A program made the translations under genes and the position numbers. Below, one piece after another: positions 31,827-55,103 of a stretch of DNA of 64,000 bases. Numbering within the stretch: position 1 is the stretch's first letter; every line of letters begins with the position of its first letter. The stretch lies in NCBI RefSeq assembly GCF_041248615.1, contig NZ_CP158426.1; one strand, given 5' to 3'. A model generated the notes under the pieces. The model made no database searches and was not told the origin of the DNA. It was given only the letters and a program-made list of their open reading frames with translations. The stretch is from Escherichia coli. GTDB taxonomy: Bacteria; Pseudomonadota; Gammaproteobacteria; Enterobacterales; Enterobacteriaceae.

Positions 31827-32044
31827 ATCCTCACCCCGATGTACACAGATGGTGCAATATGTTTGAAAAGATCGGAGTCTATGGGTTAGTTTTTATAGCA
31901 AACGTTGTTCTCAACGGCGCTAAAAAACAGACACATTAAAAATGTGGGTAATTATTTTAAAAGAAAATCATATATTAAATAATAATACGAGATATGTTTT
32001 CATATTTAGTGTACTGTATACGGCCATTTATACAGGAAAAGCCT

Positions 32045-35491: not shown

Positions 35492-36319
35492 TCAATGAAC
35501 GGTATCGAGCAGCTTTAACAGCTCAGGGAATCGGGATTCGAAGAAATGCGGCTGCGTCTCGCGCGGATTTGCAGGACTGGTGATGTTCTTGCCGAACATG
35601 CAGCCTTTCGCGGTCAGCGACCAGAATTTTTTGATGTTGTTAATCGCGGTACGACTGTATCGTTCGCGTTGTTCAACGATCCCCAGCTTCGCCATCTGGT
35701 GATATGCCTGATTAGCCGTCAGGCGGATACCATACTGCTTCAGCAGTGCACTCAGCGACAGCGTAGGGCGGCTTGAACCATCTGGCGCATCAGCAGGTGC
35801 ATCAATGGCATAGATCGGCATAAGTTCAGGAAGACCAGCTACCTTTGATAATTTCTGGTATGCACCAAGTTTCGAGGAGTTTGACAGATTTAGAGTCTTT
35901 GCTGCTGATTCAAGCAGAATGACCCCGGATTTAATTTTGTCGGATGTGGTTTCTTCTGGTGATGAATTATGAAGCGCATCAAAAGTACGTATCACTTTTA
36001 AGCTGAATGCCGGGCTGATCCACATTGCATATGCATAGACCAGCTCTTTACAGACATACGTCCCACCATTGCGCCCCTGAATGGTGATGACAGGAATACT
36101 ACGGGAATCTCCCGTAGTTTCTTCTTCCAATAATTCCACAAGAGCCTTCGTTTCAGGACGACGCATAAACTCGTGAACTTCCAGCGAACGGGAGGAGCGA
36201 TTCTCACCAGCGGCAAGAAGAGCAGCTTTCTGAAGGTCGTTAAGACAGTAGTTAGATTCGAAGTACTGGCGCACAGAAACGCCATCAATTACAAGCAACT
36301 GATTCATTGGTTTCTCCAC
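35492..36319 (-). CDS. KilA-N domain protein
   Basis: N-terminal region (NGGTYVCKELVYAYAMWISPAFSLKVI) resembles the KilA-N/APSES-type domain. Confidence 0.5.
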   Translation of the reverse strand: MEKPMNQLLVIDGVSVRQYFESNYCLNDLQKAALLAAGENRSSRSLEVHEFMRRPETKALVELLEEETTGDSRSIPVITIQGRNGGTYVCKELVYAYAMWISPAFSLKVIRTFDALHNSSPEETTSDKIKSGVILLESAAKTLNLSNSSKLGAYQKLSKVAGLPELMPIYAIDAPADAPDGSSRPTLSLSALLKQYGIRLTANQAYHQMAKLGIVEQRERYSRTAINNIKKFWSLTAKGCMFGKNITSPANPRETQPHFFESRFPELLKLLDTVH

Positions 36320-36469
36320 AAATTTTTATCCACGAGCGGGACTGCACTCCCTTTTCGTTGATGCAGGATGAACTTACTGCGATTTTTAATAGTTATCAAG
36401 GATACACTGTTCATAAATACAGTATCTTTAACGAGGTAATACCCAAATTTAGGGTGTTGCTCAATTCCG

Positions 36470-36865
36470 TTACCGAGTTGCTAATTTGCAACTCGCTTTT
36501 TCGTACTTACTGATAGTGATCTCGACCTTCCCCTCCGGGATAACCGGTCCCCACTCCACCAGCATTCTTTTCACCTGACTGTCGTCTTCCCACACACCCG
36601 CGTGGGTCAGGGCGTCAAACAGCGCCTTGTTATAGTTGTCCAGATCGCGGATCCGGTTATCCGGAGGAAACAACACGATCTCCACTGAAGCAGGTGCCGA
36701 CGTTGGTTTCGGCAGACGACGTAACTGCTCAACTATTGCTGCGCACGCCGCGCTCTGGAATTTGCGCCCCGCTGCGCTTATCAGACTCTTACCAGCAAAC
36801 GCCCCTTTGTTGGGGTGTCGCCAGTACGTGTTCACGCTGGGCGGGAAAGGCAGGATCAGCTTCAT
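36470..36865 (-). CDS. rusA: RusA-family Holliday junction resolvase
   Basis: RDLDNYNKALFDALTHAGVWEDDSQV matches the RusA catalytic core. Confidence 0.8.
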   Translation of the reverse strand: MKLILPFPPSVNTYWRHPNKGAFAGKSLISAAGRKFQSAACAAIVEQLRRLPKPTSAPASVEIVLFPPDNRIRDLDNYNKALFDALTHAGVWEDDSQVKRMLVEWGPVIPEGKVEITISKYEKASCKLATR

Positions 36866-37188
36866 ACTTTCAGGCCCCTCTCATGTAACCAGTGGGCTGC
36901 ACGCAGCCTGCCGTTTTCCTCACCGGCAAGCAGTGCGCGGATAATCCCGACCGCCTCGCTGTCGTCGTCCTTCACCGCGGTATGAAGCGTTATCCCCCGG
37001 GCCACGCCACGCTTTATCGTGATGACGCCTTTTTTCTCCAGTGCACGAAGATGCTCTACCGCTGCATTCACTGAACGGTATCCCAGCATGGTTGCCACCT
37101 CCTGATTGGTTGGCGGAAAGCCACGCTCTTTCTGGTAAGAAATCAGCATATCCAGCACCTGCTGCTGGCATTGAGTTAACGTCGTCAT
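36862..37188 (-). CDS. LexA N-terminal DNA-binding-domain homolog lacking the S24 peptidase domain
   Basis: MTTLTQCQQQVLDMLISYQKERGFPPTNQEVATMLGYRSVNAAVEHLRALEKKGVI aligns closely with E. coli LexA residues 1-70; ORF ends after about 108 aa. Confidence 0.6.
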   Translation of the reverse strand: MTTLTQCQQQVLDMLISYQKERGFPPTNQEVATMLGYRSVNAAVEHLRALEKKGVITIKRGVARGITLHTAVKDDDSEAVGIIRALLAGEENGRLRAAHWLHERGLKV

Positions 37189-37676
37189 TACGCCCCCACG
37201 TAATTCCCTGACAGATACCACTCATCACTCGATACAGCGCGCTTGCTGCTTTTCCGTAAACACTGCTCACGACGCGCCAGAAAATTGTTTCGTTCTGGCT
37301 GGGAGTGGCTTTCACGGAATGCCGCCATCCACACCGTTGCAGCACGACGGTATAAGCCCCTTGACTCCAGTTCTTCAGCCTGGCGGGTCAGGCACAAAAT
37401 CACCCGGGGATCGTTAGTGCCGACATAGAAATTGCGCACAGGTCTGGTTTCACGAACTGGTTGTGGTTCCGGCTCCTGCGCTCTCTCAGTCAGGCGCGGG
37501 AAATGTCTGCGTGTATCTCCTTCACAACGGTGAGCCACACGCCCACTCTGACGTAACTTGCTTGCTGACTGCAGAACGCGCTGCCGTGAGTAACCTGCAA
37601 AAGCATCCGCAATGTCTCCGGAAGTACACCCCGGATGGGCTTCAATGAATTTCTGAACTTCATTCAAAAGACTCAT
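37188..37676 (-). CDS. PerC/ANR-family transcriptional regulator-like protein
   Basis: C-terminal half (ELESRGLYRRAATVWMAAF...RREQCLRK) resembles PerC; N-terminal half is winged-helix-like. Confidence 0.45.
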   Translation of the reverse strand: MSLLNEVQKFIEAHPGCTSGDIADAFAGYSRQRVLQSASKLRQSGRVAHRCEGDTRRHFPRLTERAQEPEPQPVRETRPVRNFYVGTNDPRVILCLTRQAEELESRGLYRRAATVWMAAFRESHSQPERNNFLARREQCLRKSSKRAVSSDEWYLSGNYVGA

Positions 37677-37678
37677 AA

Positions 37679-38620
37679 TCACCCCCTGAATCCTGCCGGG
37701 ATCTGGCTGTAGTCCACGTTGTCGTAACTGGCTTTGAAGTACGGGTCTTCACGTTTTTCTGTGTGCGTGCTGACGGACGGCGATAAGCGCAGGGAAAGCT
37801 CATCCCATTTTTCCCGCAACTTCGACGGGCTGAGCACGTTACGGCACCAGAACGGATCGCGGCTGACGCGGCTGTACATCTCGCAGATTTGTTTGTGAGT
37901 ACGACCATCCTGCACACACATCAGGCGAATTTCGTTTGCCCAGGCTGTCCAGTTAGGTTCTTTGGGACGAACCACCTCGCCGTCACATTCGGCGGCCTGC
38001 TCGTACAGGGCGATGATTTTTTTCCAGAGCCACTGTGCGCAGGTCAAATCATCCTGCGTTCCCCACTGGCGCTTTTTAGGGCTGAATACAACCGCATCAG
38101 GATGGCGAGTTAAAAAATCCTGTTCATCCATCTGCGTGTCCGGTTGCGAAGCGTCCGGACGAGAAGGTTTTTTATCTGATGGATCATGTTTTGATTTTAC
38201 TGACGGATCCCCGCCAGATTCTGACGGGTGAAAACCCGCTTTTTTGCCAGATTTCGACGCATCAAATTTTGACGGGTCAGATTTTGATGCGTCAGATTTT
38301 GACGGGTCAGAATCTGACAGTTGAGAAAATGCCGCTGCCTGAAGCTTCGCAACGTTAAGCTGATAAACATTCGACGCATTGCGGTTACCCTGGCGACGCG
38401 CCTTACGCGTTAACCAGCCTTCTGCTTCCAGCCGTGCGATAGCCGTTCTGACGGTACTCATCCCCGCGCCAATCTGACGGGCAATGGTTTCAATTGATGG
38501 CCAGCACACACCTTCGTCATTACTGAAATCAGCCAGGCGGGCCATAATTGCCACGCTGGATAACTTCATGCCTGATGCAGCGCAACCATCCCATACATAG
38601 CCGGTTAATTTAGTGCTCAT
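37679..38620 (-). CDS. phage replication initiation protein (replisome-organiser N-domain, DnaT-like C-terminus)
   Basis: N-terminal wHTH (CWPSIETIARQIGAGMSTVRTAIARLEAEGWL); repeat-encoded linker; C-terminus YDNVDYSQIPAGFRG mirrors the DnaT C-terminus [13 protein letters not shown] at 60180-60204. Confidence 0.6.
   Translation of the reverse strand: MSTKLTGYVWDGCAASGMKLSSVAIMARLADFSNDEGVCWPSIETIARQIGAGMSTVRTAIARLEAEGWLTRKARRQGNRNASNVYQLNVAKLQAAAFSQLSDSDPSKSDASKSDPSKFDASKSGKKAGFHPSESGGDPSVKSKHDPSDKKPSRPDASQPDTQMDEQDFLTRHPDAVVFSPKKRQWGTQDDLTCAQWLWKKIIALYEQAAECDGEVVRPKEPNWTAWANEIRLMCVQDGRTHKQICEMYSRVSRDPFWCRNVLSPSKLREKWDELSLRLSPSVSTHTEKREDPYFKASYDNVDYSQIPAGFRG
38185..38330. repeat. iteron-like direct repeats inside the replication gene (putative ori)
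   Basis: About five copies of (C/T)AGAT(T/C)(T/C)TGACGGGT spaced at roughly 18-20 bp, with an adjacent A+T-rich stretch. Confidence 0.5.
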
Positions 38621-39793: not shown

Positions 39794-39928
39794 AGCTTTC
39801 TCCTTTTTTGGTAGTTAAGTTGTTACGAGCTGCAAGAATACAACATTAACAACTTTTACCACAACTTTTAGGTGTTGGAAAGCTAAAACATAAAGTTGTA
39901 ACCTCATCAAAAAAGAGAGGGATATGTT
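39794..39928. promoter_or_regulatory. immunity-region intergenic segment with repeated operator-like half-sites
   Basis: AAGTTGT / ACAACTT at 39818-24, 39850-56, 39862-68, 39894-39900 between divergent cI and cro. Confidence 0.5.
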
Positions 39929-54780: not shown

Positions 54781-54867
54781 GCGAAGGTGGCGGAATTGGT
54801 AGACGCGCTAGCTTCAGGTGTTAGTGTCCTTACGGACGTGGGGGTTCAAGTCCCCCCCCTCGCACCA
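54781..54867 (+). tRNA. leuQ: tRNA-Leu (CAG)
   Basis: 87-nt sequence GCGAAGGTGGCGGAATTGGTAGACGCGCTAGCTTCAGGTG...CTCGCACCA with anticodon loop CTTCAGGT and long variable arm. Confidence 0.9.
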
Positions 54868-54895
54868 AAAACCACGTTGATATTGCTCGCACTGG

Positions 54896-54982
54896 GCGAA
54901 GGTGGCGGAATTGGTAGACGCGCTAGCTTCAGGTGTTAGTGTCCTTACGGACGTGGGGGTTCAAGTCCCCCCCCTCGCACCA
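54896..54982 (+). tRNA. leuP: tRNA-Leu (CAG)
   Basis: Identical second copy. Confidence 0.9.
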
Positions 54983-55016
54983 AACGAGGCGATATCAAAA
55001 AAAGTAAGATGACTGT

Positions 55017-55103
55017 GCGAAGGTGGCGGAATTGGTAGACGCGCTAGCTTCAGGTGTTAGTGTCCTTACGGACGTGGGGGTTCAAGTCCCCCCCCTCGCA
55101 CCA
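55017..55103 (+). tRNA. leuV: tRNA-Leu (CAG)
   Basis: Identical third copy. Confidence 0.9.

Follow-up and report, generated by a model that had tools for sequence, protein, structure and literature searches.

The nearest characterised analogue of the gene considered here is gp6 of phage GIL01, a truncated LexA homologue and activator of the late promoter, over whose -35 element it binds GaCACAn nTGTGaC (PMC6182141). Our subject is a LexA-like protein of 108 amino acids (aa) encoded by a lambdoid prophage of Escherichia coli, within a stretch of 64,000 nucleotides (nt) of contig NZ_CP158426.1 (RefSeq assembly GCF_041248615.1) that was analysed as a whole and is called the window below. Both proteins represent the DNA-binding domain of LexA only, and both are encoded by early phage genes; each would be an early-operon product that appears after LexA-controlled induction, and both phages carry host LexA boxes. 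Judged by its description, gp6 differs in having no C-terminal helical tail, in reading DNA via K38, and in belonging to a tectivirus of a Gram-positive host, whereas the window protein keeps LexA's own contact residues and is the product of a gene in the nin region of a lambdoid prophage. The LexA-like recognition helix of the window protein (SVNAAVEH) argues against a specificity shared with gp6.

Comparison with E. coli LexA itself reveals a shared N-terminal winged helix, with about 50% identity over 69 residues, the contacts S39, N41, A42 and E45, and the RGI of the wing. LexA also has an S24 domain (Ser119/Lys156), which is its dimerisation part as well and which the phage protein is without. 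Conversely, the phage protein has V in place of LexA E44 and a 35-residue helical hairpin that is missing from LexA, and its gene is part of a phage early operon instead of lying, as lexA does, at an SOS box of its own.

The N-terminal cleavage fragment of LexA (residues 1-84) is likewise a DNA-binding domain without a C-terminal domain. When free, this fragment is reported to retain some SOS-box binding and repression, and its degradation by ClpXP is needed for full SOS induction (PMC10584840). The fragment is quickly broken down and has an exposed ClpX degron at its C-terminus, whereas the phage protein, which ends ...RGLKV after a structured tail, would not carry such a degron. A phage protein can also target LexA directly, as does gp7 of GIL01 (PMC4551915; PMC6182141).

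Results

A LexA DNA-binding domain without an autoprotease

36862..37188, minus strand: coding sequence of the LexA-domain-only protein, 108 aa (open reading frame list, Pfam PF01726, PHROG 362, RefSeq annotation)
36985..37188, minus strand: LexA-type winged helix-turn-helix, residues 1-68; recognition helix RSVNAAVEHLRAL; wing contains RGI
36880..36969, minus strand: family-specific C-terminal helical hairpin, residues 74-103, EAVGIIRALLAGE / NGRLRAAHWLHER, after a disordered linker at residues 71-75

This gene encodes a DNA-binding domain of the LexA type that lacks the autoprotease. Residues 1-65 match the full length of the Pfam model LexA_DNA_bind (PF01726; model positions 1-65 of 65, E 3.8e-19), and phmmer aligns residues 2-70 with the LexA DNA-binding domain of Protein Data Bank (PDB) entry 1lea (E 6.8e-16). 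In the AlphaFold2 (AF2) model, for which the mean predicted local distance difference test score (pLDDT) is 83.8, a winged helix over residues 1-68 (helices 6-22, 28-35 and 40-52; strands 56-58 and 66-68) is followed by the disordered linker (71-75) and by two helices at 74-88 and 91-103. Foldseek places the first 68 residues on LexA of the LexA-DNA crystal structure 3jso with a root-mean-square deviation of 1.0 Å at about 50% identity.

An earlier reading, made from the letters of the window alone (hereafter the sequence-only reading), had seen both the likeness to the LexA N-terminal domain and the absence of the S24 autoprotease. The formal comparisons with PF01726, 1lea and 3jso bear out the likeness, and the absence is upheld by two results: no S24 peptidase domain was detected by Pfam in the protein, which ends at residue 108, and TIGR00498 (the lexA equivalog model) is matched over positions 1-91 of 203 only, with 70.1 bits against a cut-off of 110.95. 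The same reading had held that no Ala-Gly site was present, which needs correction, since an Ala-Gly dipeptide occurs at residues 88-89 (LLAGEEN) and is paired by HMMER with A84-G85 of LexA; this dipeptide, however, is neither conserved nor served by a catalytic domain. Relatives have AN, VG, TD, ER, NG or other residues at these positions, and a role of the dipeptide as a trans-cleavage or pseudo-substrate site is ruled out by this lack of conservation.

The helices of the C-terminal hairpin are modelled with a pLDDT of about 88 and the linker with one below 50. A tail motif, EAVxxxRALLAxExxAxxRAxxWLxxxG, is kept down to 40% identity, A97 and L101 being invariant and G105 nearly so. When two copies of the protein were joined by a 30-residue Gly-Ser linker, AF2 returned a low-confidence model (pLDDT 68, predicted template modelling score 0.33), and dimerisation through the tail is only a guess.

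Translation almost certainly begins at the ATG at 37188, which yields the product of 108 aa; a Shine-Dalgarno-like GGGGG run lies 4-5 nt 5' of this codon, and RefSeq uses the same ATG start for gp43 of phage SfIV and for E. coli copies of the gene. The sequence-only reading had reported the open reading frame (ORF) as 36862-37221, in which the stop and the strand are right but the upstream end is not: position 37221 belongs to a longer, 119-aa form on the minus strand that starts at an in-frame GTG upstream of the ATG, and the annotated coding sequence is 36862-37188.

DNA-contact residues

LexA contacts its DNA through S39, N41, A42, E44 and E45 (PMC3091678). The window protein has S, N, A, V and E at these five positions, so that four are kept and E44 is replaced by V. 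Across 40 diverse members of the family, S39, N41 and the wing residues R64-G65-I66 never vary, and A42 and E45 each occur in most members. It is the E. coli clade that resembles LexA most, and from its contact residues it is reasonable to infer that recognition of CTGT has been retained.

Members of a Klebsiella clade (locus L083 580-969; P0302 and P0308) have an N-terminal extension and a recognition helix that reads SSSNAVLLH or SSSKAVLLH. In a phage of this clade, ST846-OXA48phi9.1, dinI is located two genes upstream of the homologue, and a 22-bit SOS box at 3994 stands before a divergent gene.

Position in the early-right operon

37188..37682, minus strand: PerC-family (YfdN) gene (PHROG 1324; RefSeq 'yfdN: PerC family transcriptional regulator')
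36470..36865, minus strand: RusA Holliday-junction resolvase (PHROG 34); conserved downstream partner
35492..36319, minus strand: KilA-N domain protein, 275 aa (Pfam KilA-N, E 2.2e-15; PHROG 129); directly downstream of the SOS box

Within the lambdoid prophage, the LexA-like gene belongs to the early-right (pR) operon and lies in the nin (replication-to-Q) region. Its assignment to the prophage early region in the sequence-only reading is borne out by the minus-strand gene order of the window, which runs cro, a cII-like gene, the replication protein, the PerC-like gene, the LexA-like gene, RusA, KilA-N, DUF968 and Q. The stop codon of the PerC-like gene overlaps the ATG of the LexA-like gene, the two being translationally coupled, and 4 nt at the end of the LexA-like gene, in its stop codon region, are shared with the start of rusA. 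The former overlap implies co-transcription from the early-right operon; the overlaps with both neighbours, together with a gene order that is kept in homologues at 41-50% identity, point to expression as part of this early operon. Homologues of PerC are activators of virulence genes in pathogenic E. coli. The prophage has its own S24-type cI at 39929-40615.

A canonical SOS box near the gene

36405..36424, minus-strand reading TACTGTATTTATGAACAGTG: canonical LexA (SOS) box, CTGT-N8-ACAG core (pattern search and sequence)
36371..36399, minus strand: candidate sigma-70-like promoter of the KilA-N gene, TTGATA-17 nt-TAAGTT (weight-matrix scan, prediction)

Scanning the window for CTGT-N8-ACAG, a pattern that the sequence-only reading had named while overlooking this instance of it, recovers the box at 36405-36424. 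It is located 440 bp downstream of the LexA-like gene, within the 150 bp that separate rusA from the KilA-N gene; it is a candidate phage-borne target. For scoring we used a weight matrix derived from 28 E. coli LexA sites, which themselves score between 12.7 and 26.9 bits. At 22.0 bits, the box is the sole match of at least 12 bits near the gene and the only strong canonical box in the 64-kb window; 60 shuffles of the window gave no match of at least 20 bits, and shuffled loci totalling 3.85 Mb gave a single one. SfIV, which shares the KilA-N/SOS-box arrangement, has the box too (23.5 bits), as does a variant of the module that is 97.5% identical and has an 11-bp deletion further downstream. 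This KilA-N/SOS-box module is present in 186 genomes.

The predicted promoter of the KilA-N gene scores 10.2 bits, versus at most 5.7 for every other candidate in the gap, and is kept in locus L164; a stricter scan made no call. The SOS box, centred near -50, lies upstream of this candidate, with 5 bp between it and the -35 hexamer. An inverted-repeat search in and around the gene block returned nothing beyond the SOS box except an unrelated 13-nt repeat (TTCAATGAATTTC / GAACTTCATTCAA, 1 nt apart, 37641-37667) in the opening codons of the PerC-like ORF, immediately behind the replication gene. The operators of the immunity region (39794-39928) are repeats of the AAGTTGT type and are not LexA-like.

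A different target had been suggested in the sequence-only reading, namely a CTGT-N14-ACAG palindrome given as 32011-32032. The palindrome (CTGTATACGGCCATTTATACAG) is in fact at 32014-32035, and its 7-bp arms (CTGTATA-N8-TATACAG) resemble LexA half-sites that are 6 bp too far apart. CTGT-N14-ACAG occurs three times in the window where 0.72 occurrences are expected; the count of three is attained by 4 of 100 shuffles. This copy lies 10 nt upstream of ynfU, which encodes a small zinc-binding protein, and abuts its Shine-Dalgarno sequence; it is part of a ynfU-cspB-cspF-Q module that occurs in 1649 genomes, and its sequence is 100% identical in the Qin prophage of K-12. None of 80 other loci with the LexA-like gene has it, and as an RNA hairpin its stability is not unusual (z = 0.01). 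Its chance frequency, its membership of the ynfU-cspB-cspF module of Qin and its absence from the 80 loci therefore leave the palindrome without support as a target and with no apparent link to the gene, and it is rejected as an operator.

Family and distribution

Because the family to which this gene belongs is already catalogued and annotated, and the window copy is an ordinary member of it, detecting the sequence feature is no discovery. The protein matches PHROG 362 ('transcriptional repressor') from end to end (residues 1-108 against profile positions 1-106 of 106, E 1.1e-58) and is 94-100% identical to database members, the value for SfIV gp43 and the SfII and mEp460 proteins being about 97%. 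By tblastn, the gene is found at 95-98% identity in SfV (orf42), SfII, SfIV (gp43), mEp460, the cdtI phage, and Stx2a- and Stx2c-converting phages, with names as different as 'LexA DNA binding domain protein' and 'SOS-response repressor and protease LexA'. Such database names were assigned by similarity, and the 'protease' label is wrong.

Among 5426 complete E. coli genomes, 2232 (about 41%) have the gene, in up to four copies, as a 'LexA family transcriptional regulator', and it is intact in 2221 of them as well as in the viable phages SfII, SfIV, SfV and mEp460. There are RefSeq E. coli genomes in which the nucleotide sequence of the gene is 100% identical to that in the window, and the surrounding 2.7 kb is 98.4% identical to Shigella phage SfIV. 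Profile searches detect relatives at 40-60% identity in Salmonella, Citrobacter, Cronobacter, Klebsiella, Enterobacter, Atlantibacter and Hafnia, and the length of the family core is about 106-111 aa throughout. The gene order of the family is replication protein, (PerC or Dam), LexA-like gene, RusA, (ANT or KilA-N), DUF968 and Q; it is seen in SfIV, mEp390 and further loci, and the adjacency of LexA_DNA_bind and RusA is kept at 41-50% identity. In the phages with distant homologues (loci L166-L169), the slot of the KilA-N gene is taken by ANT-domain genes of the pRha/ANT antirepressor type. The flanks of the gene are mosaic, and no conserved non-coding DNA travels with it.

Tandem LexA winged helices within one chain, with two separate domain matches each, are found in P0132, P0133, P0148, P0152 and P0153 (140-350 aa). 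The PADLOC library of defence systems gave no meaningful match for the LexA-like protein.

SOS boxes across gene-carrying loci

To compare the occurrence of SOS boxes, we used 80 viral contigs that carry the gene (L002-L081), with DNA of up to 10 kb on each side of it, and a control set of 80 lambdoid loci that were anchored on a DLP12-type RusA and are all without the gene. Boxes of at least 20 bits number 64 in the gene-positive set, where they are distributed over 52 of the 80 loci (5.0 per 100 kb), against 2 in the 80 control loci (0.18 per 100 kb). In diversity and mosaic structure the two sets are similar. This enrichment of SOS boxes with the gene is suggestive, with phage lineage as a confounder. 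The boxes belong to at least three modules: some lie within the ORF of a cI-type repressor, some on the start codon of a methyltransferase encoded downstream of Q, and some ahead of KilA-N. When the spacing between CTGT and ACAG was analysed across the 80 loci, an extended LexA-like consensus emerged at N8 only.

A perfect box (TACTGTTTTTATATACAGTA, 26.5 bits) or a close variant of it is found within the coding sequence of a cI-type S24 repressor in L002 (7094-7113), in L166 (2836-2855) and in about 29 other loci of the L002-L081 set. It is located about 209-228 nt past the start, in the linker between the helix-turn-helix and the protease, and has no counterpart in the window's cI, which is of a different type. 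In phages that have this internal box, LexA would bind within the repressor gene. Another box (TACTGTAAAAATAAACAGTG, 22.6 bits) overlaps the start codon of a gene, just 3' of Q, for a DNA methyltransferase of 350 aa, as in L002 (13908-13927), and recurs in at least 26 of the 80 loci. A 17-nt element (TACTGTTACATACAGTG) with LexA-like arms and a spacer of 5 instead of 8 nt is present in 7 of the loci L002-L081.

Other features of the window

A 306-aa ORF at 40598-41518 on the minus strand (PHROG 3989) adjoins cI and converges on it, and has a weak match to PADLOC PDC-S48 (E 2.7e-7). Three tandem tRNA-Leu(CAG) genes (54781-55103, plus strand) are situated in the chromosomal flank outside the prophage.

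Discussion

The explanation that we tentatively prefer, and that could well prove mistaken, is that the phage gene specifies a RecA-insensitive protein that would bind LexA-type boxes during lytic growth. The sequence-only reading had already suggested that the protein could sit on SOS-type operators while being spared RecA-stimulated cleavage, which is plausible. What we infer about this protein concerns its DNA specificity, its oligomeric state, whether it represses or activates, and its physiological targets. A small DNA-binding protein, in which a flexible linker joins a LexA winged helix to a conserved tail of two helices, would be produced from the early-right operon along with the replication, PerC-like and rusA genes once the S24-type cI has been inactivated; co-transcription within this operon implies that the protein is made only after inactivation of the prophage repressor. 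It would bind to the CTGT half-sites of LexA-type boxes and, its protease domain being absent, would not be removed by RecA*. Because the base contacts of LexA are kept and there is no S24 domain, CTGT half-site binding and immunity to RecA-stimulated self-cleavage are the most likely of its properties. After the host LexA has been cleaved, the phage protein might then re-occupy SOS boxes, the nearest being the one beside the promoter candidate of the KilA-N gene, with host SOS promoters and the LexA-controlled genes of co-resident elements as possible further targets. The outcome would be an early shift in SOS-controlled gene expression during lytic growth.

Two considerations support this proposal: the free N-terminal fragment of LexA still binds and represses, and no private operator accompanies the gene. 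The mosaic nature of the flanks means that no conserved non-coding DNA is linked to the gene, and this fits a target that is defined by the host over a linked phage operator. In a bolder form, which we regard as rather unlikely, the protein would be a prophage-borne, uncleavable surrogate of LexA, present in about 40% of E. coli strains, that early in induction re-represses or re-programmes the host SOS regulon together with the LexA-controlled genes of competing prophages, of colicin plasmids and of its own phage, and so ends the SOS response on the schedule of the phage, with the tail acting as a new dimerisation module in place of S24.

Several observations weigh against binding to LexA-type boxes. 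LexA requires its C-terminal domain for dimerisation on the 16-bp palindrome. Position 44 is never Glu in the 40 diverse members, and position 45 or 41 is altered in some clades (NAATDM in Cronobacter; NAVLLH or SKAVLLH in Klebsiella), so that the LexA box is not a fixed target for the family as a whole. A box near -50 of the predicted KilA-N promoter is in an atypical position for repression. Since the control loci represent a different phage lineage, shared ancestry could explain the enrichment of SOS boxes, and attempts to assemble controls from the same lineage yielded loci that were nearly all gene-positive (64 of 79 when anchored on DUF968, and 62 of 64 when anchored on the Q of the window). 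Moreover, 28 of the 80 gene-positive loci have no strong box in the DNA covered around the gene (at most 10 kb on either side), none was found in mEp390 or in loci L167-L169, and the same boxes occur in related phages that are without the gene (L109 and L154). Finally, a full-text search of the literature found no paper that characterises the function, binding or expression of the enterobacterial family.

Some of these observations would be accounted for if the protein were instead a phage-specific transcription factor, similar to GIL01 gp6, that recognises a non-SOS operator of its own and has little or no action on host SOS boxes, activating or repressing a phage promoter such as that of the KilA-N/antirepressor gene or one in the nin region. 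We consider this possible but doubtful. It has a precedent in gp6, which acts by activation through a different palindrome (PMC6182141), and the lack of Glu at position 44 and the variation between clades at positions 45 and 41 speak for it; the family-specific tail could set another half-site spacing, and a box upstream of the predicted -35 is in a position more typical of an activator. However, the only conserved palindrome in or beside the gene block is the SOS box itself, the LexA-like consensus in the 80 loci appears at no spacing other than N8, and the immunity operators of the prophage are unrelated repeats. The E. coli clade, moreover, keeps S39, N41, A42 and E45, whereas gp6 relies on K38, and the mosaic flanks contain no evident private operator. 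Less probable, and in our view unlikely, is a role as an accessory of replication or recombination, in which the winged helix binds DNA structures, or partners together with the replication initiator and RusA. The gene is invariably placed between the replication protein and RusA (sometimes with PerC or Dam in between), with codon overlaps and in homologues at 41-50% identity, and there are weak profile matches to DnaD_N and to the winged helix of O-like replication initiators. These matches are marginal (E 0.23 and 0.0087) and reflect the generic winged-helix fold; the conserved, sequence-specific contacts of LexA would be needless in a structural DNA binder, and a position in the nin region is common to many unrelated accessory genes.

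It is improbable that the protein modulates the SOS machinery through protein contacts, with the tail binding host LexA, RecA* or another S24 repressor. The conserved tail is without an assigned function, gp7 of GIL01 offers a precedent for such an activity, and dinI is found close upstream of a Klebsiella-clade homologue, but the tail has no likeness in sequence or fold to gp7, DinI or any known binder of LexA or RecA, and the dipeptide that resembles a cleavage site is not conserved. That the gene is a decayed remnant of a full-length repressor of the LexA or cI type, with no selected function, is very improbable. In its favour, the HMMER alignment extends into the cleavage-site region of LexA (VGIIRALLAGE with VGRVAAGE), and databases contain many truncated or fused variants; however, the narrow range of lengths, the tail motif and the synteny are all kept to 40% identity across Escherichia, Salmonella, Citrobacter, Cronobacter, Klebsiella, Enterobacter and Atlantibacter, and the gene is intact in nearly all of the E. 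coli genomes that have it and in four viable phages. This conservation of the family largely refutes decay.

Given that about 41% of complete E. coli genomes, as well as Stx and Shigella phages, have the gene, and that no functional study was found in the literature searched, we regard it as being of moderate interest. A LexA DNA-binding domain without the RecA-cleavable part is a feature of 2232 of the 5426 E. coli genomes and also of serotype-converting phages of Shigella and of phages that encode the Stx2a and Stx2c toxins; perfect SOS boxes are unusually frequent in the phages with this domain. Re-occupation of SOS boxes by the phage protein, if true, would influence the duration of SOS-driven mutagenesis, of filamentation and of toxin or colicin expression after exposure to DNA-damaging antibiotics, as well as the competition among prophages that reside in the same cell. 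It would also be a second, Gram-negative case, after gp6 of GIL01, in which a phage makes use of a LexA paralogue.

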